Shown here piece by piece: positions 235 to 32,363 of a DNA stretch of 64,000 nucleotides (positions are counted from its first letter, which is position 1; the number at the start of each line of letters is the position of its first letter). Under the pieces are notes generated by a model. That model did no database searches and was not told where the DNA came from. It saw only the letters and a program-made list of their open reading frames with translations. Origin of the DNA: an uncultured Pseudomonadota bacterium. GTDB taxonomy: Bacteria > Oederibacteriota > Muellerivitia > Muellerivitales > Muellerivitaceae. The DNA lies in contig CAWJKT010000011.1 in the NCBI GenBank assembly GCA_963843375.1, positions 352,001 through 416,000 on the forward strand. The letters are read 5' to 3'. A program made the translations under genes and the position numbers.

Positions 235-1257
235 GTGAAAAAGCTTATCGTAAATTTAGTTGTAATAGCCTCACTTCCAATTGCTTTTGTAGCCGGTTGC
301 GGAAGCAATAACAACAATCCGTCCAGTCCAGGGGGTTCGGCAGCGACTTCAACGAACACCACGACACCCACGAGAACCTTAACGACCGCGACGCCAACGA
401 GTACCGGGACGAACACGGCGACGAAAACCGTTACGTCTACGGCCACGGCTACCGCGACCGTGACACCCTCGGGGACCATCACGCCCGTGGCGACCGCAAC
501 AACGACGAACAGTCCGACCAACACGGCTACCGTTACGGTGACCGCAACCCCGACCAACAGTCCGATGAGCACGGCCACTTATACGGTGACCGCTACCCCG
601 TCAGGAACGGTTACGACGATTGTAACTGCGACGCCCCAAGCCGTCCAAACACCGGTTAATCTTGGATCTACGGTCAGTTACGCTGTCTTGGCTTTCTCCG
701 AGGCCACCAATACCGGCGCCACCACACTCTGTGGGGACCTGGGTTTGTGGTCAGGAACAGCTTTTGGCGCGGGCTACGTGTTTTGTAACGGCGGAATCGA
801 GAACATCACCAATGGGGCCGCAGAAACCGCCCAAGGCGACTTGACCACGGCCATAGGGGATGCCTCGGGAAGGACAACCCCGGCTTTGATTTCCGGTGAT
901 TTGGGTGGCCAAACGCTTTATGCAGGCCTTTATAACTCATCCGGTACGATTGGGATAACGGGTACTCTCACCTTGGATGCCCAGTCAAATCCGAATGCGG
1001 TCTTCATCTTCCAAATCGCGAGCACCCTTTCCAGCGCGGTCAGCAGTCAGGTCATCCTCGCCAATGGAGCGGAAGCCGCCAACATCTTCTGGCAGGTTAG
1101 CACTAATTGCAGCTTGGGTGATTATTCCACCTTTATGGGAACCATCATGACTGGCACAGCGACCACGATTGGTACAGGCGTCGTGTTGGATGGCCGGGCT
1201 TTAGCAAAGTCCGCCGTTACGATGCAGGGTGATGACATCGCCGTTCCCACTCCGTAA
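235..1257 (+). CDS. Lipoprotein with Thr/Pro-rich stalk and C-terminal DUF3494 (ice-binding-like) domain
   Basis: Lipobox FVAGC; long T/P linker; motifs VNLGS..YAVLA, LTLDAQSNPNAVFIFQI, ANIFWQV, GRALA. The GTG at 235 matches the start of the paralog at 9039 (ORF track starts at 220). Confidence 0.88.
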   Translation: MKKLIVNLVVIASLPIAFVAGCGSNNNNPSSPGGSAATSTNTTTPTRTLTTATPTSTGTNTATKTVTSTATATATVTPSGTITPVATATTTNSPTNTATVTVTATPTNSPMSTATYTVTATPSGTVTTIVTATPQAVQTPVNLGSTVSYAVLAFSEATNTGATTLCGDLGLWSGTAFGAGYVFCNGGIENITNGAAETAQGDLTTAIGDASGRTTPALISGDLGGQTLYAGLYNSSGTIGITGTLTLDAQSNPNAVFIFQIASTLSSAVSSQVILANGAEAANIFWQVSTNCSLGDYSTFMGTIMTGTATTIGTGVVLDGRALAKSAVTMQGDDIAVPTP

Positions 1258-1290
1258 GAACTTAGTCCAATAATTGATTTAGTGGCGTAT

Positions 1291-1327
1291 AAAGGCCGGG
1301 AAAAACTCCCGGCCTTTTTTTATTTTT
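1291..1327 (+). terminator. Rho-independent terminator
   Basis: AAAGGCCGGGA-aaaac-TCCCGGCCTTT followed by a T tract. Confidence 0.85.
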
Positions 1328-1344
1328 TGACAAATTTAAGTGAG

Positions 1345-1377
1345 ATCAAAATGAGAGTTGAAAATAATCATTTTGAT
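1345..1377. promoter_or_regulatory. Tandem ATCA-N3-TGAT boxes (putative UAS)
   Basis: ATCAAAATGAG (1345-1355) and ATCATTTTGAT (1367-1377). Confidence 0.7.
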
Positions 1378-1470
1378 TGCCTATCTGTAATGGTGAGCTG
1401 CTGAAGATCCCTTCCGCGCCAAATATTTGTTTTTTTTGAAACTATTGGAGGCATGGACAGTCTTCCTTGA

Positions 1471-1484
1471 GGTATGGAAATTGC
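1471..1484 (+). promoter_or_regulatory. sigma54 promoter
   Basis: GGTATGGAAATTGC, GG-N10-GC, just upstream of the kinase gene. Confidence 0.72.
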
Positions 1485-1501
1485 TTTGAAATAGAGATTC
1501 T

Positions 1502-4500
1502 ATGACCACTCAAACCCTCCTCAAGACCGAATCTGTTGAACCGGATTCGGTGGATATCCATCAATTACTTAAAGCCTTGATGGCCCTGAAAAAGGGCGAT
1601 TTTTCTGTGCGTCTTCCGATCGACTGGACCGGAACGGCCGGCAAGATCGCGGACACTTTCAATGATGTGGTTGAGATGAACCAGCACATGGCGATGGAAC
1701 TTCAGCGCTTGTGTCAAGCCGTGGCGAAGGAAGGCAAGATCAACCAGCGGACTCCTCTGGGGGAATTCGGCGGCGCCTGGTCCCAAATGACGGAATCCGT
1801 GAACACCCTTATCGATGAACTGGTTCGTCCCACCAGTGAAATGTCCCGGGTCATCGGCGCCGTGGCCAAGGGGGACCTTTCCCAAGAAGCGGCTTTGGAA
1901 GTGGGCGGACGCCCCCTGGAAGGGGAATTCCTTCAAACGGGCCGTACCATCAACACCATGGTGGATCGGTTGCGGTCCTTCGCTTCCGAAGTCACCCGGG
2001 TTGCGCGCGAAGTAGGAACCGAAGGGAAACTCGGCGGCCAAGCCATTGTTCCAGGGGTCGCGGGCACGTGGAAGGACTTGGCCGATAATGTCAATCTGAT
2101 GGCCAGCAACCTGACGAGTCAGGTTCGTAATATCGCGGACGTCACTCTCTCAGTGGCCCAAGGCGATCTTTCCAAAAAAATCACCGCCGACGTGCGTGGC
2201 GAAGTCCTTGTCCTAAAAGAAACCGTCAACACGATGGTGGACCAACTTCGTTCCTTCGCCTCGGAAGTGAGCCGGGTAGCTCGAGAAGTCGGAACCGAAG
2301 GGAAACTGGGCGGCCAGGCCATTGTTCCGGGAGCGGCCGGAACCTGGAAAGACCTGACCGACAACGTGAATTTCATGGCAAGCAACCTGACGAGCCAGGT
2401 ACGCAATATCGCCGATATCACGACCGCTGTGGCGAACGGCGATTTTTCCAAGAAGATCACTGCCGACGTGCGGGGCGAGTTCCTTCAACTGAAAGAGAAA
2501 GTCAACACGATGGTGGACCAGTTGAGTCTTTTTACCTCGGAGGTGACGCGAGTCGCGCGGGAAGTGGGAACGGAAGGGAAACTGGATAGCCAGGCCATCG
2601 CGCCAGGCGCGGCGGGAACCTGGAAGGAATTAACCGACAACGTCAACTTCATGTCCTCGAATCTGACGAGTCAAGTGCGCAATATCGCCGATATCACGAC
2701 CGCTGTGGCGAACGGCGATTTTTCCAAGAAGATCACTGCCGACGTGCGGGGCGAGTTCCTTCAACTGAAAGAGAAAGTCAACACGATGGTGGACCAGTTG
2801 AGTCTTTTTACCTCGGAGGTGACGCGGGTCGCGCGGGAAGTGGGAACGGAAGGGAAACTGGATAGCCAGGCCATCGCGCCAGGTGCGGCTGGAACCTGGA
2901 AGGAATTAACCGACAACGTCAACTTCATGTCCTCGAATCTGACGAGTCAAGTGCGCAATATCGCCAATATCACGACCGCTGTGGCGAACGGCGATTTTTC
3001 CAAGAAGATCACTGCCGACGTGCGGGGCGAGTTCCTTCAACTGAAAGAGAAAGTCAACACGATGGTGGACCAGTTGAGTCTTTTTACCTCGGAGGTGACG
3101 CGAGTCGCGCGGGAAGTGGGAACGGAAGGGAAACTGGGTGGGCAGGCCATCGCGCCAGGCGCGGCTGGAACCTGGAAAGATCTGACCGACAACGTCAACC
3201 ACATGGCAGCCAACCTAACCGACCAGGTGCGCAGCATCGCTAAGGTGGTCAGCTCCGTAGCCAAGGGGGACCTGAAACAAAAGCTCACGGTCGTGTCCAA
3301 GGGTGAAGTCGCCACTTTGGCCGACACCATCAATATCATGGTGGACCAGCTCAATGCCTTCGCCGCGCAGGTCACCAGCGTGGCCCGAGAAGTCGGCGTG
3401 GAAGGCCGTTTAGGGGGGCAGGCCAACGTGCCGGGAGCGGCTGGAACCTGGAAGGACCTGACGGACAACGTCAACCAACTAGCCGCCAACCTGACGACCC
3501 AGGTACGCGCCATTTCCGAAGTCGTCAGTTCGGTCGCCAGCGGGGACCTGACACGGTCCATCCGCATGGACGCCAGGGGCGAGGTGGAGACTTTAAAAGA
3601 TACCATCAACCAGATGATCGCCAACCTGCGCGGCACTACCCTGAAAAATTCGGAGCAAGTCTGGTTAAAAACGAATTTGGCCCGTTTCACCCTCATGTTG
3701 CAAGGACAGAGAGATTTGTCGACCGTTGCCAAGGCTATCCTTTCAGAACTCAACCAAGTAGTTTCGGCTCAGCACAGCGCCTTTTATATTGCTGACTCCA
3801 AAGAATCGGGCGGGACTCGCTTAAAACTTCTTTCCGGGTTCGCCTACCGTCCCAGGCCAGAACTTCCGCAGGAATTCGGTTTCGGAGAGGGCCTAGTGGG
3901 CCAATGCGCCCAGGAAAAGACCAGGCTTTTATTGAATAATGTTCCTGGCGACTATATCCGTATCAGTTCGGGTTTAGGGGAAGCGAGCCCCCTGAACCTG
4001 GTGGTGTTGCCCGTTCTTTTCGAAGGCAAAATCAAGGGTGTCCTGGAATTGGCTTCTTTTGAGGTGTTCACCCCATCCCATTTGGCTTTTCTGGAACAAC
4101 TGATGGAAAGTATCGGCATCGTCATCAATACCCTGGAAGCGAATTTGCGCACTGAAACCCTTCTGAAGAACCTGCAAAGCCAGCAGGAGGAATTACAAAA
4201 GTCGAACCAAAATTTGGAAGAAAAAGCCGACCAGTTGGCCCTGACCTCCAAGTACAAGACCGAGTTTCTTTCCAATATGTCTCATGAGTTGCGCACACCC
4301 CTCAACAGCATGCTCATCCTTTCCCAGCAATTGGCAGAGGATCCGAAAAACCTTACTCCCAAACAGGTGGAATACGCCCGCACCATCCACGCTTCGGGCG
4401 GCGACTTGCTGCTGTTGATCAACGATATCCTGGACCTTGCCAAGGTGGAATCCGGGACCTTGACGCTGGACGTTATCGACCTGCCTTTTACCGAGATGCG

Positions 4501-6295
4501 TGACCATATGGATCGACTTTTCCGCCACGTGGCCGAGGGTCGCGGGCTTCATTTCGGCATCGAATTCGACCCCAAACTGGGCCTTGAAATCCATACTGAT
4601 TCCAAGAGGCTGGAACAGATCTTGAGAAATCTTCTTTCCAACGCTTTTAAGTTTACGGAAAAAGGGCAGGTCTATCTCAAGGTGGCGCCGGCCAGCGGCG
4701 GTTGGAGTTTCGACCATCCCGTTTTAAGCAAAGCCCAGGAAGTCATTGCTTTTTCTGTCATTGACACAGGGATCGGGATTCCGGAGGACAAGCAAAAGAT
4801 CATCTTCGAGGCTTTCCAACAGGCCGAAAGCGGGACCAGCCGCAAATATGGGGGGACAGGACTGGGGCTGTCGATCAGCCGCGAACTAGCAATGGTTTTG
4901 GGGGGCCAATTGGCTTTGGCCAATAGTCATCCTGGGCGCGGGAGCGCTTTCGTTCTTTATATGCCAAGGAATTATGTCCCGGTCAAGCCCGCTACGGTCA
5001 TTCCCGCCATCGAACCAGAACGATTGCTGGCTCCAAAGCCGCCACACGATCCGGTGCTAACGGAAAGCGATGTGGCTTTAGGTTCCACGAATGAGGTTGC
5101 GGACGACCGAAAAAACATCCAGTCGGGTGACAAAATCCTCCTGATCGTGGAAAAGGACGCGAAATTCGCCCAAATCCTATTGGAGGCGGCCCGCGATAAA
5201 GGTTTCAAAGGGCTTGTCGCATCACGAGGCGATACCGCCTTGCGTTTGGCCAAAGAGTTCCCGGCAAGCGCGGTGACCTTAGATATTCGGCTCCCCGATA
5301 TTGATGGTTGGAGCATTCTTGCCCATTTTAAGAAAGACTTGGCCACGCGCCATATCCCCGTTGAGATTATTTCCGGTGATGGGGACCGGATAAGGGGCCT
5401 AAAGCAGGGAGCATTGGGATACCTGAAGAAGCCCGTTAATAAAGAGGACCTGGACAAGGCTTTTAAGAATATCCATAAATGCCTTGAGTCACCTACCCGA
5501 GAAGTGCTGCTGGTTTGCGGAAAGCAGGACCAACGCAAAAAGCTCAAGGAAATACTGGAATCCGGTGAGATCAAAGTGCATGCCGTTTCCAGCAGCCGTG
5601 AAGCCCTTCCGCTTTTGAAGGAAGGAAACCTGGACTGTGTGGCCCTGGAAGTACCGGATCCAGAGGCTTTCCGGGTGCTCCAAGCCATAAATATCAACCC
5701 TCAATACGGCTATTTACCCCTGATCGTTTATATCAGCGGTGATCTCAATAAAAACGAAGAGGAAGAACTGAGGCGGATCGCCAAGGTTTGCGTCGTTAAG
5801 GAAACCAAGTCCATGGAAGGATTAATGGATGAGGTGATCCTTTTTATCCATCAGGCAGTCTCCAAGCTTCCCGAAGCCAAACGCAACAGTATTGAACAGA
5901 TGCACCGGAGCAACGACATTCTGACCGGCCGAAAGGTGCTAGTCGTGGATGACGACATCCGCAATATTTTTGCCATGACCAGCCTTCTGGAGCACGAGAA
6001 GATGCAAGTCTTATCTGCGGAGAGCGGCAGCGGGGCCATTGAGCTTTTAGAAAAGACTCCAGACATGGACATCGTTCTTATGGACATTATGATGCCGGAA
6101 ATGGACGGTTACGACACCATGCAGGCCATCCGCAAAAAGGAATCCTTCAAATCCCTGCCCATCGTCGCCTTGACCGCTAAGGCCATGAAGGGAGACCGGG
6201 AAAAATGCATCGAGTCTGGGGCCTCGGATTACATCACTAAGCCAGTGGACACAGCCCAGCTACTCGCCCTGATGAGAATATGGTTGAAACGATAG
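1502..6295 (+). CDS. Soluble poly-HAMP/GAF hybrid histidine kinase with three C-terminal receiver(-like) domains (OsaA/Nik1-like)
   Basis: Repeated 92-aa di-HAMP units ([19 protein letters not shown]...[11 protein letters not shown]), GAF region, H-box [11 protein letters not shown] boxes (NAFKFT, DTGIGI, GGTGLGL), final REC LVVDDD...LMDIMMP...ITKP. Confidence 0.95.
2399..3226 (+). repeat. Three near-identical 276-bp tandem repeats (di-HAMP units)
   Basis: Units start at 2399, 2675 and 2951 with nearly identical DNA; more diverged copies flank them. Confidence 0.9.
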
Positions 6296-6305: not shown

Positions 6306-6908
6306 GTGGTTGAGAATAAAATGCCAGTCAATATTCTTTTAGTAGATGACCAGCCGGCCAATCTATTGGCGCTCGAGGCTGTATTGGAAAGCCTGGGTCA
6401 AAACCTAGTAAGGGCCAATTCCGGGGAAGAGGCTTTAAGGCAGCTGATTCAAAGGGATTTCGCCGTAATTCTTTTGGACGTGCTTATGCCGGGGATAAAT
6501 GGGTTTGAAACAGCGGCCCTTATCCGCCAGCGCGATCGTAACAGCAATATGCCCATCATTTTCCTGACGGCGGGTGGAAAAACCGAGACAGAGATGTTCC
6601 GTGGCTATGCCGTGGGAGCCATCGACTACCTATTGAAGCCCATCCGTCCGGCGGTACTTCGGTCCAAGGTATCGGTTTTGATCGACCTTTACCGCCGGAC
6701 CACGGAAGTGCATCACCTAAAGCAGGAACTCAGCCAAAGAATCCGGGAAATCGAGGGCTTGAACTCGATGTTAAAAACCGAAAATGAATGCCGCAAAAGG
6801 ATTGAGGCGGAATTGGGCCTGTCCAAAGAGGGGTCGAAAAACTTTGATGCCAACTCGGAGGCGAGAGCTCCCAAACCCACGATGGCGGTCGAAGAACAGG
6901 GACGTTAG
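6306..6908 (+). CDS. OsaB-like response regulator (REC + coiled coil)
   Basis: ILLVDDQPANLLALEAVL...AVILLDVLMP...IIFLTA...LLKP; no DNA-binding output; AGGAGG RBS. Confidence 0.9.
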   Translation: MVENKMPVNILLVDDQPANLLALEAVLESLGQNLVRANSGEEALRQLIQRDFAVILLDVLMPGINGFETAALIRQRDRNSNMPIIFLTAGGKTETEMFRGYAVGAIDYLLKPIRPAVLRSKVSVLIDLYRRTTEVHHLKQELSQRIREIEGLNSMLKTENECRKRIEAELGLSKEGSKNFDANSEARAPKPTMAVEEQGR

Positions 6909-6940
6909 CCGAGCGAACCAATGGAAAACTGGAGTAAAAA

Positions 6941-7504
6941 ATGACAAAGGGCAAGGAAGTTAACGTAAATAGGCCACGCGTCAACATTCTTCTAGTGGAT
7001 GACGAACCGGCAAACCTGCTGGCCCTTGAGGCGGTATTGGAATGTCTGGGCCAAAACTTAGTGCGGGCTAATTCTGGGGAAGAGGCTTTAAGGCAGCTAA
7101 TTGAAAAGGATTTCGCCGTCATTCTTTTGGACGCGTTGATGCCAATGATGAACGGGTTTGAAACGGCCGCCCTGATACGCCAGCGCGACCTCAGCAGCCA
7201 TATGCCGATCATTTTCCTGACGGCGGGTGGAAAAACCGAGACGGAAATGTTCCAAGCCTATGCAGTGGGAGCGATTGACTATCTGTTGAAACCTTTCGTT
7301 CCCGCAGTGCTGCGTTCCAAGGTTTCGGTTTTGATCGAACTTTACCGCCGAACCGAGGAAGCGCGCCGGCTGAACGATGAATTAGGCCGCAAGGTCAAGG
7401 AACTTGTAATTGTGAACTTGAAATTGGAGATCGAAAATCGAAAACACGATCGGATGATGGAGAAACTTCACCGATCTGAAGAAGGATTGAAGAAACTCAA
7501 CTGA
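6941..7504 (+). CDS. Second OsaB-like response regulator (paralog)
   Basis: REC domain nearly identical to 6306-6908, divergent coiled-coil tail. Confidence 0.9.
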   Translation: MTKGKEVNVNRPRVNILLVDDEPANLLALEAVLECLGQNLVRANSGEEALRQLIEKDFAVILLDALMPMMNGFETAALIRQRDLSSHMPIIFLTAGGKTETEMFQAYAVGAIDYLLKPFVPAVLRSKVSVLIELYRRTEEARRLNDELGRKVKELVIVNLKLEIENRKHDRMMEKLHRSEEGLKKLN

Positions 7505-7829: not shown

Positions 7830-8690
7830 ATGAATCGAAAATATTTTTTTGGAACATCTTCATCCCCTGGAGTTCTTGTCCTAGCGATTAAAAATTATTT
7901 CAAGATCGAAGGATCTCAACAGGCGGCCGTGTTCGCTTATTACGCTTTTTTTTCTCTCTTTCCATTAGTTATCCTGGCCGTGATGATATCCTCGTTTTTT
8001 GCGGACCAGGACCGCGCGGCCCGAGAGGTCATTGGATATTTCAAAAATTACGCGCCCCTGGACGCCCAATTAAACCAGGATGTTTTCGACGTCATCACCG
8101 GAGTGGTCAAGGAGCGGGGAAAAGCGACGATCATCGTCCCTTTAATCTTTTTTTGGGGGGCCTTCCGTTTTTTCAACGTGCTGATTCGCGCGGTCAATCG
8201 GGCCTGGGGTACCCGGGCGGGAAAATGGTGGCGCCTGCCCCTGAAGAACATCCTTTTGCTCGCGATCACAGGTCTGACCATCCTGCTGGGTCTGGGGACA
8301 CCGGTGGTTGCCAGGCTGGCTAGGCACTGGTTTTTTTCCACGTACGAATTTGTTTCGTGGATGTATGAAGCGGCTGTCGTTATCGGCCCCTTGCTTGCTC
8401 TTTTTCTAGGATTAAGCCTTCTTTACAAGCTCGCACCCTGCCGGCCCACACGCTTTGCTGAAGTGTGGATAGCCGCGCTGGCGGCTGCGGCGGCATTGTG
8501 CGTACTGGAAAGTTTGTTTGTCATTTACCTTCGAATCTTCTCCAAGTTCAACCTGGTTTACGGGGCGTTTGGCGGCATGATGTCCCTACTCATGTGGATT
8601 TATCTTTCGGGATGCATCATTGTCCTGGGAGCCTGCTTGTCCGCCGCCCAAGCCAAGGTAAAAGCGCATTGGTGGAGTCGCAACTTTTGA
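7830..8690 (+). CDS. YihY/virulence factor BrkB family membrane protein
   Basis: AAVFAYYAFFSLFPL, VYGAFGGMMSLLMWIYLSG; multiple TM segments. Confidence 0.88.
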   Translation: MNRKYFFGTSSSPGVLVLAIKNYFKIEGSQQAAVFAYYAFFSLFPLVILAVMISSFFADQDRAAREVIGYFKNYAPLDAQLNQDVFDVITGVVKERGKATIIVPLIFFWGAFRFFNVLIRAVNRAWGTRAGKWWRLPLKNILLLAITGLTILLGLGTPVVARLARHWFFSTYEFVSWMYEAAVVIGPLLALFLGLSLLYKLAPCRPTRFAEVWIAALAAAAALCVLESLFVIYLRIFSKFNLVYGAFGGMMSLLMWIYLSGCIIVLGACLSAAQAKVKAHWWSRNF

Positions 8691-8727: not shown

Positions 8728-8854
8728 ATCAAAATGAGGCCCCAATCCCCGTTTTGATCTTCATCAGACCGCTTCATTTAAAACAATTTTTCAAGGCACC
8801 CGGAGCTTTTCCGCGGCTTTCCGACCGAATTAAATTCATTCGAATCATTTTGAT
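8728..8854. promoter_or_regulatory. ATCA-N3-TGAT boxes (putative UAS)
   Basis: ATCAAAATGAG (8728-8738), CCCGTTTTGAT (8748-8758), ATCATTTTGAT (8844-8854). Confidence 0.6.
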
Positions 8855-8960: not shown

Positions 8961-8974
8961 GGTATGGAACTTGC
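8961..8974 (+). promoter_or_regulatory. sigma54 promoter
   Basis: GGTATGGAACTTGC. Confidence 0.75.
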
Positions 8975-9038: not shown

Positions 9039-9821
9039 ATGAAAAAACTTGTCGTCAGTTTAATCTTTATGGCCGCGTTTCCAATCGCTTTTATGGCGGG
9101 ATGCAGTTCTCAAGTCCCGACTTCATCGAACTCGGCGACTTCAATCCCCACCTCAACACCGGCCGCCTATTCGACACCCCAATCGACGAATCCAGCTATG
9201 GTAAATCTTGGATCGGCGGTGACTTATGGGATCCTAGCTTCCACTCAGATCACTAACTCCGGAGCTTCTACTGTCTGTGGAAATATCGGTTTGGATTCAG
9301 GAACATTGATAAATGGAGGGATTAATTTGACCTGTGGTGGGGTTTCACAGGTGAATAATTCTACCGTACTCGCCGCCCAAGGGGCCTTAGGTGTCGCCTA
9401 TACCGCCGCCATGGGAGCGCCAACCGGCGCCACCATTCCAGCGGGCACCGATATTGGAGGGCAAACCCTTTATCCCGGGGTTTATACCGTCGGTGGGAAT
9501 CTTAATATATCTTCGGCTGACCTTACCCTTAGCTCCCTGGGAACCACAAACGGTGTCTTTATTTTCCAGATTACAGGCAGCAACAATCTCGTAGTCGGGC
9601 CCGGCCGCAAAGTCATCCTTTCAGGGGGGGCGCAGGCGGCCAATGTTTTTTGGGTGGTGGGAGGGTACTGCTCTCTTAATACGATGGTCTCTTTCGTGGG
9701 CAATATTATGGCCGGTACATCAGTCACGCTTAATACGGGTGCGGTCCTGTTAGGCGAAGCTTTGGCGGAGACAGGTGATGTTACTTTGTTGGGTAATACG
9801 ATCACTGTTCCGGGGCTATGA
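9039..9821 (+). CDS. DUF3494 ice-binding-like lipoprotein (short linker)
   Basis: Lipobox FMAGC; VNLGSAVTYGILA, GQTLYPGVY, VFIFQI, ANVFWVV, LLGEALA. Confidence 0.88.
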   Translation: MKKLVVSLIFMAAFPIAFMAGCSSQVPTSSNSATSIPTSTPAAYSTPQSTNPAMVNLGSAVTYGILASTQITNSGASTVCGNIGLDSGTLINGGINLTCGGVSQVNNSTVLAAQGALGVAYTAAMGAPTGATIPAGTDIGGQTLYPGVYTVGGNLNISSADLTLSSLGTTNGVFIFQITGSNNLVVGPGRKVILSGGAQAANVFWVVGGYCSLNTMVSFVGNIMAGTSVTLNTGAVLLGEALAETGDVTLLGNTITVPGL

Positions 9822-9908
9822 GTTTTCGGAATTGATTGGGCGGCATAGGCCGAGAGGGTTTCTCAGCCTCTGCTGCATTTATTTGCAGGAATTTGAAAGG
9901 AAAAAGAA

Positions 9909-10349
9909 ATGAAAAATGGCGCATCAGCAGCGATGATTTTAAGTTTGGGCGTAACGGCCTTGTTGTTTTCCAGTTGTGGGCAGAAAAAGGTTGAAAACAC
10001 GGAGGTCCCACAGGGACCTGAGAGCAACGAGACGGTTCAGGCAGCGGCGCCTACACCAATTCCCACGCCCGCTAACGTGGAGAAGTATGTAGTCCAAAAA
10101 GGGGACACTCTTTGGGCAATAGCCGATCAATCAGGGAATTACTCCGATTATTACGAATGGCCGCTACTTTTTAAGACCAACCGGGATGAAATCCAAGATC
10201 CCGACCAGATTACTCCCGGACAGGTTCTCATAATTCAGAGGGGGCAAACGACCGAACAAAACGAGCATACCCGGCAGTTGGCCAGTGACACACCGGCCTT
10301 CGTGTCCCATGAAGCGCCGCGGACGACTCTTCCGATTAATTACTTTTAA
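9909..10349 (+). CDS. LysM-domain lipoprotein
   Basis: Lipobox FSSC; YVVQKGDTLWAIA...W..LF..N...IQDPDQITPGQVL. Confidence 0.88.
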   Translation: MKNGASAAMILSLGVTALLFSSCGQKKVENTEVPQGPESNETVQAAAPTPIPTPANVEKYVVQKGDTLWAIADQSGNYSDYYEWPLLFKTNRDEIQDPDQITPGQVLIIQRGQTTEQNEHTRQLASDTPAFVSHEAPRTTLPINYF

Positions 10350-13911: not shown

Positions 13912-13925
13912 ATCTCCCTAATCTT

Positions 13926-21000: not shown

Positions 21001-23906
21001 CAAGACCCGGGGATTCAACAATGCTGTTAAGCCGGCCGCCAACATCCCGATAGAAATAGACCCCTTCATTCTTCGACCAAAACTGGAAATTGAAAGGGAT
21101 GAGTTGAAATTAGCCTTCGCGGCCGTGACCCATTCCAGAAAATTCCGGTGGCTGACGAACAATCGGTAAAGTGTTCGAGTGATTGCGTCTAAGTGCATCC
21201 AGGCCCGATTGGCGACAAGAAGCAGATTGACGATGAATTGTCCTCCACCCAGGAGAAAATTCCTTCGGATTTCCACTAGTTGGTCCCTCCAATGCAGGGA
21301 AGTTCTCCAAAAAGCCAAGTCCCCCAAAAAAGGCATCAGGGAGGGAAGGGCAATCGCCGAAAGAGCCAAGCCGACCCAGACCGTCCGATCAACCTGGGGA
21401 AGGCAAAAGGCGGAAATTAATAGGCCGATGGTGCCGAGGGGGGAAAGACTCCGTCGCAGGTTGTCGGCCATTTTCCACCGAGCGAGGGTGGAGAGGGATG
21501 TCCCCGCTCGCCCGAAGATCCAGGGCAGAAGCTGCCAGTCCCCCCGAATCCAACGGTGGCTCCGGGAGGTTGAGATTTCCGCATGGGAGGGGAACTCCTC
21601 GAAAAATTCCAAGTCACTGGCGTATCCACATCGGGCGAAAGAACCCTCGAAAAGATCGTGGCTCAATAAACGGTTTTCCGGGATCCGGCCTTCCAGAGAT
21701 TTTTCATAGGCATCCACGTCATAGATTCCCTTTCCGGTAAAGCTGCCTTCGCCGAACAAGTCTTGATACACGTCGGAGACGGCCGAAGCGTAGGGGTCAA
21801 TTCCGCATTCACCCGAAAAGAGCCTCTGGAAAATGGATTTCTCATTGCGTCCCGGTAAAAAGGCAGTTACTCGAGGTTGTAAAATCCCATAGCCCTCCAC
21901 CACCTTCTTTAGCTGGGGATCCAAACGGGCCCGGTGGAGGGGGTGGGCCAAAATCCCCACCAATTGATTAACGACCCCCGGCGGAAGTTTCGTGTCGGCG
22001 TCCAGGGTAATGACATAACGAACCCCATTAGGGGCCTCAACAACAGAGCCGTCCGGGTTGAAGTAGCTGGTGTCGACCGCTTTCCTCAGAAGACGGTTGA
22101 ATTCATGGAGTTTCCCGCGTTTGCGTTCCCAACCCATCCATTTTCCCTCCAATGGATTCCAGAGCCTTTTGCGGTGAAAGAAGAAAAAACGCGGATTTCC
22201 ATCTGGCGCCGGCCCGTGTTTTTGGTTGAGTGCGGCCACTCCTTGAACGGCCGAGGATATTTTTTTGAGGTCTTCTGGAGAAATTTCCAAATCCGAGTCG
22301 GGCCAATCGGTGAGAAGGGCGAAAAGGACATCTCCCTCGGAATTAGAAAGATAGTGAACCTCCAATTTTTCCAACTGTTCGGGGATATCCAACTCATCCT
22401 CCAGCAGGGTTGGAACAACCACAAAGGTACGAAAATTTGAAGGGAGGCCTTCTGGAAATTCCAGTCGGGACAAATGCCTAGGAGGAACCATCCGTGTGAC
22501 AAAACGATTGACCCAATCCACGGCTAGATCGGAAGCGGGGAAAAAACCAAAAGCCAGCAAAAGAAGGAGTATGAAAATAGGCAGGGCGGGATTCAAGAGG
22601 ACGGCGATCCCGAGAAGGACAAACGTTATCAATAGAAGGTTTCCCATATAAGTGACGGTTGGATGGTCCGTGCAAAGCCGCAGGAAGCGGTCTTTAACCG
22701 GAACCCGGAAGCCGACCTCTTTTTCAAAAGACCTGCGGCCTTCCGAAAAAAGATAATAGCCGGGGTCCCGAAACCTTTCGGAAAATCCGCTTTGACCGGA
22801 CCCTCCTTCGGCTTTTTGGACCGCCCAGCGGGCGATTTCCAACTCGCTTTTTTTAGAGCCTTTGGCAATTTCCTCTATTGCGGCACGGTAACTGTTGCGG
22901 GTCATGAAATCCATCTTTTGGAAATTGGGGTGTTCCGCCAGGATTTCCTGGACAAGGCTGACCCGCTCGAAGAATTCCTGCCAATCGAAGGTCGGTCATG
23001 GAACGGAAACTGGTGATCATATTCCGGACGGTGCTGTTGTTGGCGGCCTGCCGGCTGTGGACGGAAGCCACCAGTTCCTCAGCGGTCGTTTTCTTGGCGG
23101 CCAACCTTTCGTTCAACCACCGAACCAAAGGTGTTCCCGTGGGGTCCTGGTAACGCAAGCGCTGGATAAGCTGAACCAGGAATGCCGGATGGGCGGATTG
23201 TCGCTCCAATTTCGACGCAGAGGGACGCCCGGCTGCGGCGGATTCCTCGATAAGCCCTAAAAGCTCGTCCACGAAGGTATCCGCGTCCTGCCGGGCTTCC
23301 TGGGAGGTAACCAGGTAAACGGCTATTCGGCGGAGGTTATCGACCATCACTACACGCAATGTAATGGCCAGGGCCCAGAGCTCTCCGATGGTGAGCGGCT
23401 GGACCTGCTGGTAGGAGCGGACAAAATGAATCAGGGATTCGGGATCGAAACGGCTATCCGTGTGGGCCACGTAAGCCCAAGCCAATCCGTAAACGCGCGG
23501 GATACCACTTCAAGAAACCCTCGGAAAGCTTGGGGAGTTCGTTGTAAAAATCGTGGGGCAGAAATTTTTTAATATCCCGAAGCTGTTCTTTCACCACGTA
23601 AAAGGAATCGATCAACCATTCGCCCGCGGGATGGATCGGCTTCTTTTTTTCGGCCTCCTGAGTCAGATACCGGAAGGATTCCTGGAGTATTTTTTGGTTT
23701 TCACGCAAACGGGGAGTCAGCGGGACTCCGGATTTTGGATCATCAGTTACCGTTTGGGCCACTGCCAGTGATCGGGCATGCTGGTCGAAGCGCTCAACAC
23801 TGAAGAGTTCGGAGCGAATGGGATCTTCCATGGGCCTGGAGACGAGGAAAGAGAAGGAAAGCAGGGAATTAAACTGGTGTTTGAGATTTAAAAAGGTTTG
23901 ATTCAT
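15079..23906 (-). CDS. ndvB: Cyclic beta-1,2-glucan synthase/phosphorylase (NdvB/Cgs; GT84 + GH94), interrupted by five +1 frameshifts
   Basis: Joined fragments show [100 protein letters not shown]. Removing 5 bases from 8828 nt gives 2941 codons. Confidence 0.9.
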
Positions 23907-24086: not shown

Positions 24087-24100
24087 GCAAGAAACAAGCC
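24087..24100 (-). promoter_or_regulatory. sigma54 promoter (leftward, toward ndvB)
   Basis: Minus strand GGCTTGTTTCTTGC; one mismatch from the 14308-14321 site. Confidence 0.7.
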
Positions 24101-24162: not shown

Positions 24163-24193
24163 ATCAAAATGAGAGCTGGCGGATCATTTTGAT
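24163..24193. promoter_or_regulatory. Tandem ATCA-N3-TGAT boxes between divergent sigma54 promoters
   Basis: ATCAAAATGAG (24163-24173) and ATCATTTTGAT (24183-24193). Confidence 0.72.
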
Positions 24194-24266: not shown

Positions 24267-24280
24267 GGTATGGAACTTGC
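24267..24280 (+). promoter_or_regulatory. sigma54 promoter (rightward)
   Basis: GGTATGGAACTTGC. Confidence 0.75.
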
Positions 24281-24334: not shown

Positions 24335-24610
24335 ATGATTTATTCTTTTCAATTACATAATTTGGTTTGGTTTTTGTTGGTAGGCGGTTTGGCTGGTTGG
24401 CTGGCAAGTAGTTTGGTCATGGGCGGAGGCATGGGAATTATCGCTGATATCGCCGTAGGGGTTGCTGGGGCACTTGTCGGCGGGATTTTGGCCGATTCCT
24501 TCAACTGGAACATCTATGGTTTTTGGGGTGTGTTAGGTGTTTCGATTTTGGGCGCCATGATCTTGATCGTGCTGTTCCGTGGACTTTCCGGCAGGTGGCG
24601 CAGGGCTTAA
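24335..24610 (+). CDS. GlsB/YeaQ/YmgE (transglycosylase-associated) stress membrane protein
   Basis: LLVGGLAGWLAS...G.IADIAVGVAGALVGG...SILGAMIL. Confidence 0.9.
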   Translation: MIYSFQLHNLVWFLLVGGLAGWLASSLVMGGGMGIIADIAVGVAGALVGGILADSFNWNIYGFWGVLGVSILGAMILIVLFRGLSGRWRRA

Positions 24611-24805: not shown

Positions 24806-25447
24806 GTGATGAAATGGCGGATTTTGATTTTGTCGACCATTGTTGGGTTTCAGGGCCCGGTATGGATCCCCGGGGCCCTCGCTTCGACAACGAAAACCAA
24901 GACCAGCAAGCCCATTCGGGATTTTATGTCCGGAAGCCAGCTTTGGATCGAGGGCAATTCCTCGGTGCGTCGATACTACCTCACCGCCGAAAAAATTTCG
25001 GCCAAAAGTGATTTGAACGGGATTTCGGAGACGAAAGCCTTGATGGACTTGATCCTCAACCGCAAGGGCCACCATCTGGTGGTGACCATGCCGGTGAAAA
25101 ACCTGAAGTCCGGCGATCCCAACATGGACCAGAACGCCTATGACAAGTTGAAGTCCAAGGAGTTTTCCGACATTGTTTTTACTCTGGGTGATTACGTGGT
25201 AAAGGCTTATCCTCACAGTCTTACCACCTATGCTCTGCTGGTATTCGGCAAGCTAAGGGTTGCGGGTGTCGAAAAGGACGTTGTTTTGGAGCCGACGATG
25301 GTCATCGGCAGGAACGGTATTCGGATTTACGGCACCCAAGACGTCTATCAGAAAGATTACGGTATCTCGCCCTATAGCGTGGCCTTGGTCATGACCACAG
25401 ATGACAAGGTCGTGGTTCATTACATGATCGCGCTGGGGCCGAAATGA
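24806..25447 (+). CDS. YceI-family secreted protein
   Basis: Signal peptide; SQLWIEGNSS, V..LKSG...MD..AY..LK..EF..I.F, GKL.VAGV.K.V. Confidence 0.75.
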   Translation: MMKWRILILSTIVGFQGPVWIPGALASTTKTKTSKPIRDFMSGSQLWIEGNSSVRRYYLTAEKISAKSDLNGISETKALMDLILNRKGHHLVVTMPVKNLKSGDPNMDQNAYDKLKSKEFSDIVFTLGDYVVKAYPHSLTTYALLVFGKLRVAGVEKDVVLEPTMVIGRNGIRIYGTQDVYQKDYGISPYSVALVMTTDDKVVVHYMIALGPK

Positions 25448-25559
25448 TAAAAAAAGAAATCAAGTCATTGGCGCGAACCCGACAACCCAATAACAATATG
25501 AATTTCAACTATATTTCGACGGGGGTACTAATCCTATTTGTTCTTCTCGCTTCCTTGAA

Positions 25560-26822
25560 ATGCTCGGGCCAAAAGAACGCGGGCCACGCCATCCCGGTTC
25601 CGAATCATATCGAAACACATTGAGCTCCCTAAAACCGCTTATTTCGGGAAAAAAAACCAGGCCATGGGAGGGCGAGAAGCTTTATTTTAAAGGAAACGAT
25701 TTTTTTAAAGACGTTTTAAACGCCATCCGTCTCTCCAAAAACAGCGTAGATTTTGAAGTTTATATTTATGAAAAGGGTATTTTGGGTAACCGAGTTGCTT
25801 CTGCATTAATTCAGGCCGCCCGTCGGGGGGTAAAAGTGCGTCTTTTGGTGGATGGAATTGGATCGCCCGATTGCGTCTCCGATTATGGTGAAATGTTTAG
25901 AAAAAGTAGGGTGCGATTCAGGGTTTACCGCCACCTTCCCCATTTTTTCAACTTGTTTTCCCGACCATTCGCTTTTTTGTATACCGGAAAAGCCCTTCAC
26001 CGTCTTCGGATTCTATGGTTCCGAATGAATCGCCGGGACCATCGTAAACTGTTCATGGTGGACCGGGAACGGATCTGGTTGGGAGGCTTCAATGTTTCGG
26101 ACGAGCACCTGGAGTCTGTAGCCGGTAAAAAAGCCTGGCGGGACACGGGAATGCGCCTGTCAGGTGTTCGGGACAAGGCATTCCGGCTGGCATTTAATAC
26201 GGCCTGGCACGATAAGGTTCACCGGCGTCTTTGGAGGTTTTACCGTGGCAAGTTAATCGCCTGGTTGTCCCGAAAGTCCGATTCTCATTCTATTCAAATC
26301 AACGCCACTCGCAGGCTCCGAAAGCGGTTCCACAAGGAACTGCTAGGTCGTTTGAGATCGGTTCGACGGCGGATTTGGGTCACAACGCCTTATTTCATTC
26401 CCGCCCTCCCCGTGTTTCGAGCTTTGCTAAGAGCGTCCCTTCAGGGTTGCGATGTGCGTTTGGTTCTTCCCGAGAAATCGGATATTCCGTTCGTTCGTTG
26501 GGCTTCCATGACTTTTTTTGCGCCGCTTCTGAAGGCGGGATGCCGAATATTCGAATACCACAAGAGCATCTTGCACGCGAAAACCCTTTTAGTGGATGAC
26601 TGGTCCCTGTTAGGGTCAAGCAACTTCAATCATCGTAGTTTTTTGTTCGACTTGGAGGTGGACGTTGTCCCGCAGAAGCCGGCGTCCCTGAAAGCATTGG
26701 AGCGGCAGTATGCTTTCGATTACAGGCAAAGCCGGGAAATAATTTTTCCGGATTTGAATCTCAGGCCCTATTGGGACCGGTTTTTAACTTGGCTTTTTTT
26801 TCGCCTGCGGCATTGGCTTTAA
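25560..26822 (+). CDS. Cardiolipin synthase (ClsB-like phospholipase D)
   Basis: Two HKD motifs (HRKLFMVD, HAKTLLVD), WRDT, TPYFIP, GSSNF..RS; no N-terminal TM; start uncertain. Confidence 0.88.
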   Translation: MLGPKERGPRHPGSESYRNTLSSLKPLISGKKTRPWEGEKLYFKGNDFFKDVLNAIRLSKNSVDFEVYIYEKGILGNRVASALIQAARRGVKVRLLVDGIGSPDCVSDYGEMFRKSRVRFRVYRHLPHFFNLFSRPFAFLYTGKALHRLRILWFRMNRRDHRKLFMVDRERIWLGGFNVSDEHLESVAGKKAWRDTGMRLSGVRDKAFRLAFNTAWHDKVHRRLWRFYRGKLIAWLSRKSDSHSIQINATRRLRKRFHKELLGRLRSVRRRIWVTTPYFIPALPVFRALLRASLQGCDVRLVLPEKSDIPFVRWASMTFFAPLLKAGCRIFEYHKSILHAKTLLVDDWSLLGSSNFNHRSFLFDLEVDVVPQKPASLKALERQYAFDYRQSREIIFPDLNLRPYWDRFLTWLFFRLRHWL

Positions 26823-26856: not shown

Positions 26857-26897
26857 ATCAAAATGATTTTTAAAAACCGATTTCAGATCATATTGAT
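26857..26897. promoter_or_regulatory. Tandem ATCA-N3-TGAT boxes (30-bp spacing)
   Basis: ATCAAAATGAT (26857-26867) and ATCATATTGAT (26887-26897); no clean sigma54 site found nearby. Confidence 0.5.
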
Positions 26898-29244: not shown

Positions 29245-29276
29245 CTCAAAATGATAGGCCTTCAAATCATTTTGCC
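29245..29276. promoter_or_regulatory. Tandem ATCA-N3-TGAT-like boxes (putative UAS)
   Basis: CTCAAAATGAT (29245-29255) and ATCATTTTGCC (29266-29276). Confidence 0.6.
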
Positions 29277-29369: not shown

Positions 29370-29383
29370 GGCATGATACTTGC
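29370..29383 (+). promoter_or_regulatory. sigma54 promoter
   Basis: GGCATGATACTTGC. Confidence 0.72.
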
Positions 29384-29432: not shown

Positions 29433-29552
29433 ATGGCAAAAAGAACTAGGGGCGCGAGGATGGTGGCCGCGAAAAAAAGAGCCGCGAAACGACATGGAGG
29501 CAAGGGGATGGTTAAGAACAGGACCATCGGCAAGCACATCATGAAGACCTAG
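29433..29552 (+). CDS. 39-aa highly basic microprotein
   Basis: AAGGA RBS; MAKRTRGARMVAAKKRAAKRHGGKGMVKNRTIGKHIMKT; first ORF after the sigma54 motif. Confidence 0.6.
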   Translation: MAKRTRGARMVAAKKRAAKRHGGKGMVKNRTIGKHIMKT

Positions 29553-30582: not shown

Positions 30583-31095
30583 ATGTTTTCGGATTTGAAA
30601 AAAGTTTTGACAGTTGGCTTGATGATGGCAGGAGTTCTTTTGTTTCCGGTATGCGTGCGAGCTGACTCGGATTATCACCCTTCCAATTATGGGGGTAATT
30701 TTGGTTTGGGGTTAGAGGTAGGTGATCCAGGCGACTGGGGCATTACCGGCAAGATCTGGATGGATCGAGTCAACGCTTTCCAACCGGCGGTGAAATTCGA
30801 CTCCGCGGGTGATGTTCTCTTGCAACTAGATTATTTATGGCACAATTTCGACATCATCCAGATGCGGGACACCGAGGGGGAGATGCCGCTTTATATCGGA
30901 GTTGGTGGCGACCTGTTGCTTCAAGATACAGTGCAAATCGCGGCCCGCGTTCCGTTGGGAATCTCCTACATTTTCGATAAGCGGAACGTGCCGATAGACA
31001 TTTATTTGCAAGCCGTGCCGACCCTTTGGTTTTTCAGCGACGGTCTTACGTCGTTCGATGTTTATGGTGAATTGGGAGCGCATTACTACTTTTGA
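30583..31095 (+). CDS. Small outer-membrane beta-barrel protein (DUF3996-like)
   Basis: Signal peptide; FGLGLEVGDP..ITGK.W, LYIGVGG, ARVPLGI, C-terminal aromatic HYYF. Confidence 0.7.
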   Translation: MFSDLKKVLTVGLMMAGVLLFPVCVRADSDYHPSNYGGNFGLGLEVGDPGDWGITGKIWMDRVNAFQPAVKFDSAGDVLLQLDYLWHNFDIIQMRDTEGEMPLYIGVGGDLLLQDTVQIAARVPLGISYIFDKRNVPIDIYLQAVPTLWFFSDGLTSFDVYGELGAHYYF

Positions 31096-31121
31096 GCAGT
31101 GAATAAGAAAGGATGTTCAAA

Positions 31122-31268
31122 ATGTTGTTTACGATCGCGGCAGTCTTGGTTGTTCTTTGGCTTTTAGGTTTCGTGAGTTCCTACACCTTCGGCGGCTATA
31201 TCCATGTACTTTTGGTGATCGCCCTCATTGTTTTAATTTTTGGCTTTTTTCAAGGCCGGAGGGCCTGA
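31122..31268 (+). CDS. lmo0937/DUF5670-family 48-aa membrane microprotein
   Basis: Manually translated: MLFTIAAVLVVLWLLGFVSSYTFGGYIHVLLVIALIVLIFGFFQGRRA. Confidence 0.88.
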   Translation: MLFTIAAVLVVLWLLGFVSSYTFGGYIHVLLVIALIVLIFGFFQGRRA

Positions 31269-31295
31269 TTTTCATCCAGAGAAAGACGGTGCAAA

Positions 31296-31442
31296 ATGTT
31301 TTTCACAATTGCGGCACTTTTGTTGATTCTTTGGCTTTTGGGACTGATTAGTTCCTACACACTGGGCGGTTACATCCATATTCTCCTGTTGATCGCCCTC
31401 GTTTTTTTAATTGTCGGTTTCTTCGTTCCCCGGCGAGGTTGA
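31296..31442 (+). CDS. Second lmo0937/DUF5670-family 48-aa microprotein
   Basis: Manually translated: MFFTIAALLLILWLLGLISSYTLGGYIHILLLIALVFLIVGFFVPRRG. Confidence 0.85.
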   Translation: MFFTIAALLLILWLLGLISSYTLGGYIHILLLIALVFLIVGFFVPRRG

Positions 31443-31656
31443 TTTTCCCGCAAGGAATCCGTCGAGTTCAACTGGGACTTGAAAAAGAAATATTGGTTCA
31501 TTTTGAATAAGACTAACGAGATGAACCTTATTTCGTAAGAGATTTATTCGGCGAGTTTTTCTTGCGCCTTTAAAAATCAAACGCCTCATTACATGGGATG
31601 AAACCGAAGTGAAAGTCCGGGGTTTATTTCCGGAATAAATAAGAAAGCAGGCGACG

Positions 31657-32010
31657 ATGTCACTCTCAAAAGAAACGGTACTGGAATCGTTGAAACAAGA
31701 CCACGTGATGGTTTTGAACGTTCTTCCGGAAGTGGAGTTCGAAAAGCTTCATATCGAAGGTTCCCGCAACCTCCCATTGACACATGACCCTGGCGCTTTT
31801 GCCGAGGCTGTGGAAAAACTATACGGGAAAAAAAGATTTTTCATCATTTACGGATCCAACATTACCAGCCACGCCGCCATCATTGCTTCTAGTGCCCTGC
31901 AGAAAAGGGGTTTCAAAGCCGAAGTCTACCTCAGTGGTATGAAGGGATGGAACGAAGCCGGCTTTCCCACGGCAGGGACCGATGCCCCGAAAAAGGCGGC
32001 TTTACTATGA
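31657..32010 (+). CDS. Rhodanese-like domain protein (no catalytic Cys)
   Basis: VLNVLP..EF...HIEGS.NLP, IIYG, YLSGMKGW..AG.P. Confidence 0.8.
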   Translation: MSLSKETVLESLKQDHVMVLNVLPEVEFEKLHIEGSRNLPLTHDPGAFAEAVEKLYGKKRFFIIYGSNITSHAAIIASSALQKRGFKAEVYLSGMKGWNEAGFPTAGTDAPKKAALL

Positions 32011-32363
32011 GCGGGCTCGTGATCGCGCGCGATTCGGAAAAAAACAAGACCGTCGAACCATGGGGGACTATCGCCTGGATGGCCAACCAGCCCCTCTCCG
32101 GAAGCTCTGTGACCGTTGGTCGCTTGATTCTTTACCCAGGCTTCACCAATACCTTGCACAGTCATTCGAACGCCGATGAAGTTATCTTCCTGCTCCGGGG
32201 AAGCGTCCGGGTTAAACTGGGCGGCACGGAATTGGCCATGGAGGCGGGGGACGCCCTGACGATCCCACTGAAGGTCGTCCATCAGATCAAGAATACCGGG
32301 GATGAGGAAGCTGTAATGACCCTTTCCTATTCTTCCGGCGTCCGGAAGTACACGTCGGAATAA
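32007..32363 (+). CDS. Cupin domain protein
   Basis: HSHSNADEVIFLLRG...GD.LTIP..VVH.I.N; ATGA overlap with the rhodanese stop. Confidence 0.88.
   Translation: MSGLVIARDSEKNKTVEPWGTIAWMANQPLSGSSVTVGRLILYPGFTNTLHSHSNADEVIFLLRGSVRVKLGGTELAMEAGDALTIPLKVVHQIKNTGDEEAVMTLSYSSGVRKYTSE

Follow-up and report, generated by a model that had tools for sequence, protein, structure and literature searches.

A paired enhancer and sigma54-type promoters outline a candidate general-stress regulon in an uncultured FCPU426-lineage bacterium

A 64,000-nucleotide (nt) stretch of contig CAWJKT010000011.1 (assembly GCA_963843375.1, forward-strand positions 352,001 to 416,000; hereafter the window), from an uncultured bacterium, carries a gene cluster in which six paired enhancer sites accompany eight promoters of the −24/−12 type. 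We read this cluster as belonging to a sigma54 regulon that spans several operons in an FCPU426-lineage bacterium and in which one bacterial enhancer-binding protein (bEBP) would drive a broad growth-arrest or general-stress output, and put the probability of this reading as a whole at about 0.62. The original prediction had described the region as a freeze and osmotic stress island run by sigma54 rather than by RpoS, SigB or EcfG. Articles are cited by their PMC number; numbers beginning with L denote genomic loci.

The sigma54 −24 consensus is TGGCAC (PMC12316311), and the canonical TGGCAC-N5-TTGC pattern matched the window once at one mismatch, within coding sequence, compared with 3.62 matches by chance. 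The promoter motif actually present was GG-N10-GC without a T at −26, found six times on the plus strand and twice on the minus strand. Taken alone this pattern was weak, with six plus-strand sites versus a shuffle mean of 2.0 and a maximum of 5. The paired enhancer, consisting of two ATCA-N3-TGA half-sites with 9–11 nt between them, occurred six times versus 0.03 expected in shuffles. For all eight promoters the nearest enhancer element used, a paired site or a half-site, was 62–106 nt away. Each paired site was matched with a promoter (6/6), and such units appeared 0 times in 100 shuffles, a post hoc figure as the motif was taken from the same window. The six sites serve eight promoters, two of which are divergent and face the other way from upstream activator sites (UAS) 4 and 5.

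We scanned GTDB genomes with the enhancer alone, the promoter not being in the query, and obtained at least 117 loci; 116 sites were counted in 115 of 117 loci, leaving out L067 and L083, a duplicate of L039. A promoter was defined as GG-N8-TTGC at 35–230 nt from the enhancer, and flank shuffles gave the expectation. Among the matches listed, genomes with FCPU426 or Firestonebacteria in their title had a promoter at 13 of their 14 sites, where 1.8 were expected. The metagenome-assembled genomes grouped with these had one at 12 of 12 (1.2 expected; the grouping of short loci is partly post hoc), and clostridia and bacilli, the positive control, at 13 of 16 (0.5 expected). For Chloroflexota the figure was 3 of 11, with 1.4 expected, and for the remaining unrelated genomes 6 of 63, with 4.2 expected. 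The 14th FCPU426/Firestonebacteria-titled site had a high-scoring promoter variant with AG for GG; one relative, L020, carries this substitution. A matrix built from 41 promoters of the relatives ranked the eight window promoters 1 to 8 in the 64 kilobases (kb); the ninth-ranked match, inside a gene, scored 16.1 against 16.2 for the eighth. Window proteins were 41–88% identical to those of related genomes, with the highest values in CAWIIP and PLZG, and on this basis the window belongs within FCPU426 or close to it. The predicted sigma54-type control by a shared motif is well supported by conservation in relatives, matrix rank and helical phase, and the synteny check did not turn up orthologues scattered without the motif: gene order was shuffled and the motif kept.

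Matches outside this lineage were of several kinds. In the Chloroflexia loci L015, L029, L041, L064 and L074 the scan pattern lay within a perfect 33-nt palindrome present in several copies per genome, resembling repetitive extragenic palindromic (REP) elements; one palindrome in L029 adjoins a bEBP-like gene without GAFTGA. These matches were rejected as enhancers because they are perfect palindromes, which the FCPU426 enhancer spacers are not. In rhizobia the paired site recurs in four genomes (L021, L038, L045 and L058), and at the two loci examined it precedes a gene whose start resembles a signal peptide, with no −24/−12 promoter near; here it is probably the operator of another regulator. 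In the Fibrobacteria locus L065 an enhancer with promoters on both sides (7863–8144) faces a GT4/GH130 pair and a Cpn60-containing unit, and a GT4/GH130 pair also adjoins the candidate activator in L043.

Promoter spacing was analysed in a long-locus set comprising the window and 19 related loci (8 kb each side of the enhancer), with 49 promoters. Distances to the enhancer formed a class A cluster at 101–108 nt and a class B cluster at 61–65 nt, and 20 other spacings below 130 nt held the same 10.5-nt helical phase (p about 1e-4). Ten of 11 two-sided enhancers had one A and one B promoter. GG and GC stood ten bases apart, oriented towards genes, at 8 promoters in the window and 49 with the 19 loci, and C at −15 was present in 46 of the 49. 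Upstream activator sites of sigma54 promoters mostly lie 100–250 bp away (PMC6615313); those described here share the helical phasing, with class B sites nearer than this range. In Pseudomonas putida a few promoters are listed without T at −26 (PMC11997794). Sigma54 is very probably the reader of these promoters.

Patterns for EcfG, SigB and RpoS matched 3, 2 and 0 of the 49 promoter regions, with shuffle means of 1.9, 1.1 and 0.4; a loose SigB pattern matched two of the eight window regions, sigma70 promoter scans stayed at or under shuffle level (10 versus 12.4; 9 versus 12.9), and the only sigma factor seen in the scanned loci was an RpoD (L011). Preferring sigma54 to RpoS, SigB and EcfG therefore agrees with their shuffle-level motifs, with the amendment that the specific switch would be the bEBP, not sigma54 itself. 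That the motif is no sigma54 promoter at all, being instead the −35 element of an extracytoplasmic function (ECF) sigma factor, a repeat or hairpin element, or chance, would fit the missing T at −26 and the match of the scan pattern to the Chloroflexia palindromes, and is nevertheless highly improbable. Relatives keep GG and TTGC at a fixed 10-nt spacing (TTGC being part of the search), the enhancer spacers are non-palindromic, the sites are phased, and the clostridial control behaves as expected. An ECF reading of GGAAC in class A promoters was rejected, as EcfG pairs numbered 3 of 49 versus 1.9 and GGAAC is not kept in relatives; an Fnr reading of the enhancer was rejected because its arms are reversed relative to the Fnr consensus.

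The candidate activator is a 540-residue protein with XylR_N, V4R, AAA+ and helix-turn-helix (HTH) domains, encoded in 5 of 19 related loci (four genomes) and always adjoining a pirin gene. The protein of L012 and its relatives have the parts of a bEBP: a Sigma54_activat AAA+ domain, a GAFTGA or GSFTGA loop and a C-terminal HTH. The CAWIIP genome holds two copies, 76% identical (L012 and L019). The recognition helix, GVATLYRK, closely resembles the GIATLYRK of Escherichia coli YgeV, and in E. coli K-12 (L118) the xdhA promoter has a paired site 100 nt ahead of it; ygeW, ygfK and uacT are likewise preceded by sites. The operons xdhABC and ygeWXY are sigma54 operons of the putative YgeV regulon (PMC10602906); we did not find the candidate sites (1605–1636, 7444–7483, 17292–17322 and 32662 of L118) described in the portions of that article available. 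The ATCA-N3-TGA core also occurs in published clostridial (BldR-type) bEBP sites, with 23 occurrences in the supplement of PMC6615313. Two phenol-type relatives of XylR and DmpR (L120 and L121) have upstream sites with the same arms and a 2-nt centre, one base shorter. Half-sites without GG-N8-TTGC occur upstream of 5/5 activator genes compared with 6 of 23 control genes, a pattern as for autoregulation, and the G[IV]ATLYRK helix is found in 10 of 19 bEBPs near enhancer matches, five of them outside the FCPU426-group lineage. Overall, we think it quite probable that the XylR_N-V4R-AAA+-HTH protein activates these promoters.

The sensor domain was compared across the best 120 homologues, using the residue roles given for the pocket and zinc site in PMC7264223. 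The zinc site Cys/Glu/Cys/Cys was present in 120 of 120 and the pocket Trp in 118, and the His that positions phenol (DmpR His100) was replaced by Tyr (58), Leu (51), Phe (6) or Met (3). XylR itself has Tyr at this position (PMC7264223). Without the phenol-positioning His, phenol is unlikely as the signal; an apolar ligand, or a redox or metal signal at the V4R sensor, is possible. Four residues past the first zinc ligand, 110 of the 120 homologues keep an extra Cys, which is absent from two phenol-type regulators. The subfamily is large, all of the best 120 homologues being at least 64% identical and one being named from Planctomycetota, so that the design may extend beyond the FCPU426 lineage. 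A plasmid search returned no subfamily member, the best match being about 36%.

We propose that one bEBP would bind the two ATCA-N3-TGA half-sites, two helical turns apart, and activate sigma54 polymerase at those GG-N10-GC promoters that are phased with the enhancer along the helix. One enhancer would often fire two promoters, one of class A at about 104 nt and, on the opposite side, one of class B at about 52–65 nt. The most likely candidate for the bEBP is the one-component XylR_N-V4R-AAA+-HTH protein encoded in the relatives' clusters; instead of phenol, its signal at the V4R domain would be a small molecule or a redox or metal change, though this is weakly indicated. The motif, its pairing, phasing and conservation, and the anatomy of the activator, are established at the level of sequence.

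Regulon content was then taken from a census of ten genomes, the window's own and nine others represented by long loci, with unit members assigned by gene order. For the related loci, Pfam scans covered 205 cluster representatives (at least 45 residues, without a window homologue) of 338 open reading frames (ORFs) in 19 loci; these ORFs came from a simple calling script, and some of their starts are incorrect. The first gene after a promoter was a rhodanese in five genomes; DUF3494 (six promoters), DUF2934 and the 132-residue secreted protein in four each; the holin-like/DUF883-like pair in three; and a HAMP kinase, pirin or GlsB in two each, a third genome having a promoter before GlsB but no near enhancer. 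CsbD, BON, AdhP, Crp/Fnr and a PAS kinase came first once each. Later genes included lmo0937, AI-2E, DUF4403, LysM, superoxide dismutase (SOD; L037 and L080), Dps/ferritin, STAS (L043), PPK2 and a caa3 oxidase-cytochrome b/Rieske operon (L013). Eight promoters lie within 30 kb of the window genome, and the relatives' partial loci hold as many as 9 per genome. The output would thus comprise proteins of the envelope and membrane, surface lipoproteins of the DUF3494 family, a hybrid kinase with HAMP domains and CsbD/BON/DUF2934 proteins, together with pirin, SOD, Dps/ferritin and an alternative oxidase. General stress is rather likely to be the purpose of such a regulon.

A regulon devoted specifically to freeze–thaw or osmotic protection, as first proposed, appears improbable. 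DUF3494 is the first gene at six promoters in 4 of 10 genomes, and the solved structure nearest to it, 6eio (E 4.8e-35), is of an antifreeze protein; promoters of their own precede the OsaA/B-like set and the glucan synthase gene, and the words 'bog' and 'palsa' occur in two relatives' genome titles. Yet that label rests on DUF3494, on an OsaA/B call from architecture, and on a glucan synthase gene that is broken in the window; cls lies downstream of a terminator, no family for compatible-solute synthesis or uptake turned up in the Pfam results for the window or the 19 related loci, and rhodanese (five genomes), DUF2934 (four) and redox, respiratory, stress and unknown genes share the promoters and are equally represented. 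Both DUF3494 proteins pass PF11999 (157 and 145 bits; cut-off 28.7) and have a lipobox-type Cys, but fall well under the NCBIfam ice-binding equivalog IBP_CFB (89.5 and 92.4 versus 400). DUF3494 has also been reported from samples of rock and of the subsurface, and its activity there varies (PMC12337378).

It is similarly doubtful that the regulon serves an oxygen or redox transition or dormancy, with the activator sensing redox through its Cys-rich V4R domain, a reading that overlaps with general stress. It would account for the units with caa3 oxidase, SOD, Dps/ferritin, pirin, Crp/Fnr and AdhP, for qNor, KatG and XFP/AckA as neighbours, and for the extra V4R Cys; moreover, bEBPs that sense redox exist, OrpR and PexR being examples. 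The window units, however, hold mostly envelope and unknown genes, and the window's oxidase operon (46.7–50.7 kb) and sodC lack the enhancer. The lxa locus of Burkholderia cenocepacia uses an Fnr-like TGA-N6-TCA box, different from the present site.

Several observations weigh against a single bEBP driving a general-stress regulon through sigma54, beginning with the activator. The window holds no bEBP gene, and 14 of 19 related loci, each viewed for 8 kb on either side, lack the activator. The five activator upstream regions with half-sites are homologous and so are not independent trials. Of the 19 bEBPs near enhancer matches, 9 carry helices other than G[IV]ATLYRK, and the 10/19 is a count uncalibrated against background. 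Receiver-type bEBPs of Bacteroidota share the helix, so another bEBP of this genome could be the reader, and the bEBP near the promoter-flanked site of Fibrobacteria L065 has a different helix (having first clustered with the candidate activator, it was rejected as a member for this reason and for lack of XylR_N). At the promoters, T at −26 occurs in 0 of 8 in the window and 9 of 49 overall, short of the canonical TGGCAC element and unlike the clostridial and bacillar promoters (13/13 among the matches listed), and class B carries GGCT or GGCC instead of GGCA. No rpoN was found among the window proteins or the 205 scanned proteins of the 19 related loci, and a strict IHF site lay between enhancer and promoter in 0 of 49 cases. 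KatG, GlgP/AckA/XFP and one caa3 operon are divergent from enhancers and have no promoter on that side (scores −3.6, −9.6 and −6.4), so that they count as neighbours, and qNor too is a neighbour without a promoter of this type. Finally, the general-stress roles of CsbD, BON/OsmY, Dps, GlsB/YeaQ, lmo0937 and DUF883 are general background.

The first group of these points leaves room for a different bEBP that has this helix to read the same sigma54 regulon. Such a reader could be a receiver-type protein that the clusters' HAMP or PAS kinases phosphorylate, and the XylR-like gene would then be a mere member or neighbour. Receiver-type G[IV]ATLYRK bEBPs do adjoin the same site in Bacteroidota, and the loci often contain kinases and receivers. 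We consider this unlikely, since the XylR-like protein is the sole bEBP type in the 19 FCPU426-group loci (5/5) and half-sites precede each of its genes.

Returning to the proposed regulon of one XylR-like bEBP, the features of the window are collected in Table 1. Families were called from Pfam and NCBIfam model scans of the window proteins against the model cut-offs.

Table 1. Enhancers, promoters and genes of the cluster, in window coordinates
Feature	Position	Strand	Remarks
UAS 1	16..48	.	two ATCA-N3-TGA half-sites, 11-nt spacer, 4 mismatches in total
Class A −24/−12 promoter	153..166	+	104 nt from UAS 1; matrix score 18.2
DUF3494 lipoprotein a	235..1257	+	Thr/Pro linker; strong terminator 1291-1317 downstream
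UAS 2	1345..1377	.	paired half-sites
Class A promoter	1471..1484	+	93 nt from UAS 2
Multi-HAMP/GAF/HisKA/REC hybrid histidine kinase	1502..6295	+	OsaA-like architecture
Two tandem receiver/coiled-coil proteins	6306..7504 (6306-6908, 6941-7504)	+	Pfam
YihY/BrkB membrane protein	7830..8690	+	NCBIfam 90.5 vs 73.15 cut-off; no promoter of its own found
UAS 3 (8728-8758) with extra perfect half-site (8844-8854)	8728..8854	.
Class A promoter	8961..8974	+	106 nt from extra half-site, 202 nt from UAS 3
DUF3494 lipoprotein b (9039-9821), LysM (9909-10349), AI-2E (10822-12033), DUF4403 (12206-13336)	9039..13336	+	Pfam
Holin-like membrane protein (14240-13926) and DUF883-like protein (13911-13546)	13546..14240	-	holin-like start downstream of class B promoter
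Class B promoter, divergent	14308..14321	-	65 nt from UAS 4; matrix score 25.0
UAS 4	14387..14419	.	common to two divergent promoters
Class A promoter	14492..14505	+	72 nt from UAS 4
132-residue secreted protein, no known family	14542..14940	+	first gene after promoter in four genomes
Cyclic beta-1,2-glucan synthase-like GH94/glucoamylase gene, fragmented	15079..23906	-	five frame changes
Class B promoter towards glucan synthase gene	24087..24100	-	62 nt from UAS 5; score 27.4, highest in window
UAS 5	24163..24193	.	common to two divergent promoters
Class A promoter	24267..24280	+	73 nt from UAS 5
GlsB/YeaQ-like membrane protein	24335..24610	+	Pfam 24.1, just below 25.3 cut-off; terminator 24729-24757 downstream
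YceI-like protein and Cls-like phospholipase D	24806..26822	+	downstream of terminator 24729-24757; clustered, putative regulon members only
Orphan UAS, 19-nt spacer	26857..26897	.	5' of gene 27197-28294; no promoter found
365-residue protein, no family named	27197-28294		orthologue sits in promoter-led unit of L010
UAS 6	29245..29276	.	paired half-sites
Class A promoter	29370..29383	+	93 nt from UAS 6
39-residue very basic microprotein	29433..29552	+	87% and 82% identical in two other genomes
Two conserved proteins, no known family	29618-30385; 30583-31095	+	Pfam/NCBIfam
Two tandem lmo0937-family microproteins	31122-31268, 31296-31442	+	NCBIfam 58.2 and 42.4 vs 30 cut-off
Rhodanese and cupin	31657..32363	+	Pfam; lone half-site 31497-31507, no promoter

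The gene names first given to this region stood in part. Both DUF3494 proteins, YihY, AI-2E, LysM and both lmo0937 proteins pass their cut-offs. GlsB/YeaQ falls just short of its model, and the Cls-like phospholipase D lies under both cardiolipin-synthase equivalogs of NCBIfam (242 versus 290; ClsB, 172 versus 281). Neither the holin-like nor the DUF883-like protein has a Pfam match, DUF883 included; the first Atlas match of the latter (0.90, 'putative DUF883') is a lead only. The glucan synthase-like gene shows five frame changes relative to an intact 2,845-residue plasmid homologue, which decay or an assembly error would fit equally; lacking the single multi-domain frame of about 2,800 residues typical of NdvB/Cgs, it takes its name from domain architecture. 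Its 3' part (3.5 kb) is present in L016 with an open reading frame.

The claim that sigma54 promoters serve these genes likewise held for the units behind the eight promoters and six enhancers, and not for all of the named genes. Regulon membership of cls and the YceI-like gene is unsupported, because the terminator at 24729–24757 lies between promoter and genes; GGDEF has no divergent promoter at the enhancer at 29245, where the best matrix score was 2.7; and the matrix scan found no promoter of this type for YihY, cls, gene 27197, GGDEF or rhodanese. YihY may possibly be expressed by read-through from promoter 1471, and rhodanese heads its own unit in five related genomes. The hybrid kinase has an 80% identical orthologue in L066, likewise preceded by a UAS and promoter, and the two receiver genes share 83% DNA identity across 300 nt. 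Likeness of this set to OsaA/OsaB is one of domain architecture alone; in Streptomyces, osaB is SigB-dependent (PMC10117811). Gene order and promoter type of the DUF3494 b/LysM/AI-2E/DUF4403 unit are preserved in L039, and a class B promoter precedes the holin-like/DUF883-like pair in L039 and L066. For the 132-residue secreted protein an Atlas search returned unnamed clusters only, all below 0.9. The 39-residue Lys/Arg-rich microprotein, directly after a class A promoter and with counterparts at L039 9107–9223 and L037 296–412, has no match in Pfam or NCBIfam and possibly binds nucleic acid.

Contrary to its description as an island, the region does not stand out from its flank. Its G+C content is 0.506 both inside (1–32.4 kb) and outside, and third-position G+C is 0.60 versus 0.62; Rfam and tRNA scans of the window were empty, no integrase was seen among the scanned ORFs, and the left border lies outside the window. 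A horizontally acquired foreign island was rejected on the equal G+C; the region is a gene cluster. Elsewhere in the window, the cytochrome oxidase operon (46741–50695), VIT1 (52850–53560), SodC (55738–56280) and a nitroreductase (62057–62746) have no enhancer or promoter of this type, and genes related to them lie near enhancers in L013, L072, L077 and L039. An MFS_3 transporter gene (53728–54980, plus strand) is split into two ORFs, the sole other clear break besides the glucan synthase gene. A Thr-rich lipoprotein ending in a thioredoxin domain (32599–33576, minus strand) and a small protein with a homing-endonuclease-associated repeat (58496–58924, plus strand) were also present.

With the regulators XylR, DmpR, MopR and PoxR, the candidate activator shares the XylR_N-V4R-AAA+-HTH architecture, the zinc site and the pocket Trp. 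It differs in its identity of about 36%, the lost phenol-positioning His, other changed pocket residues and the extra Cys; its recognition helix departs from those of L120 and L121, and its enhancer has a 3-nt centre. No aromatic-catabolism genes were seen in the units, and the activator's neighbours are pirin and stress genes. The candidate's recognition helix matches that of E. coli YgeV (UacR), whose targets are preceded by the paired site found here, and BldR sites share the core, yet the targets of these two are purine catabolism and a butanediol gene, and clostridial promoters retain T at −26.

Narrow sigma54/bEBP stress systems include NorR, PspF and RtcR. In PexR of Myxococcus and in OrpR and DVU3305 of Desulfovibrio, too, a bEBP drives stress genes from sigma54 promoters, but each controls two genes or operons, compared with 8 promoters in 30 kb here; DVU3305, with two operons, is labelled 'General stress response' in a table of its source. 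The lxa locus resembles the present loci in its clustered survival genes, acetate kinase, cytochromes, nitroreductase, Crp/Fnr regulators and shared motif; its motif is Fnr-like, however, and universal stress proteins are absent from the Pfam tables of the window and related loci. No title or abstract that we searched, in a collection thin on subscription papers, describes a general stress regulon under a bEBP or how FCPU426 genes are regulated, and the available portions of PMC12316311 mention neither FCPU426 nor general stress. FCPU426 is an uncultured soil and peat lineage, and shared-enhancer sigma54 wiring of stress survival has been little described.

To our knowledge, all known general stress responses are run by alternative sigma70-family factors. 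In content, the present regulon resembles those of RpoS, SigB and EcfG, with CsbD, BON/OsmY, Dps, GlsB/YeaQ, lmo0937, DUF883-like, YihY, AI-2E and OsaB-like proteins. It differs in having −24/−12 promoters and a shared enhancer, the motifs of those factors being at chance level, and in that an ATP-dependent activator would take control in place of an alternative sigma70 factor and its anti-sigma factor. EcfG, for comparison, is a master regulator governing the general response to stress (PMC8103513). Judged from its sequence, the system would work as a general stress regulon and be built as a sigma54/bEBP system. The parts list comprises an activator, an enhancer and promoters of two classes, with a relaxed −24 element that standard sigma54 matrices would overlook, and it would place the 39-residue microprotein, the 132-residue secreted protein, DUF2934, DUF4403 and the DUF3494 lipoproteins in one regulon. 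More tentatively, we can imagine that the main general stress response of FCPU426 forms a fourth architecture beside RpoS, SigB and EcfG, with a XylR-derived one-component bEBP sensing redox or metal, in place of phenol, through its extra Cys, divergent two-class promoter pairs fired from one enhancer, and a sigma54 variant or paralogue that does not need T at −26. If the reading is true, a broad stress regulon under one ATP-dependent activator would represent a design different from that of the sigma70-based systems.

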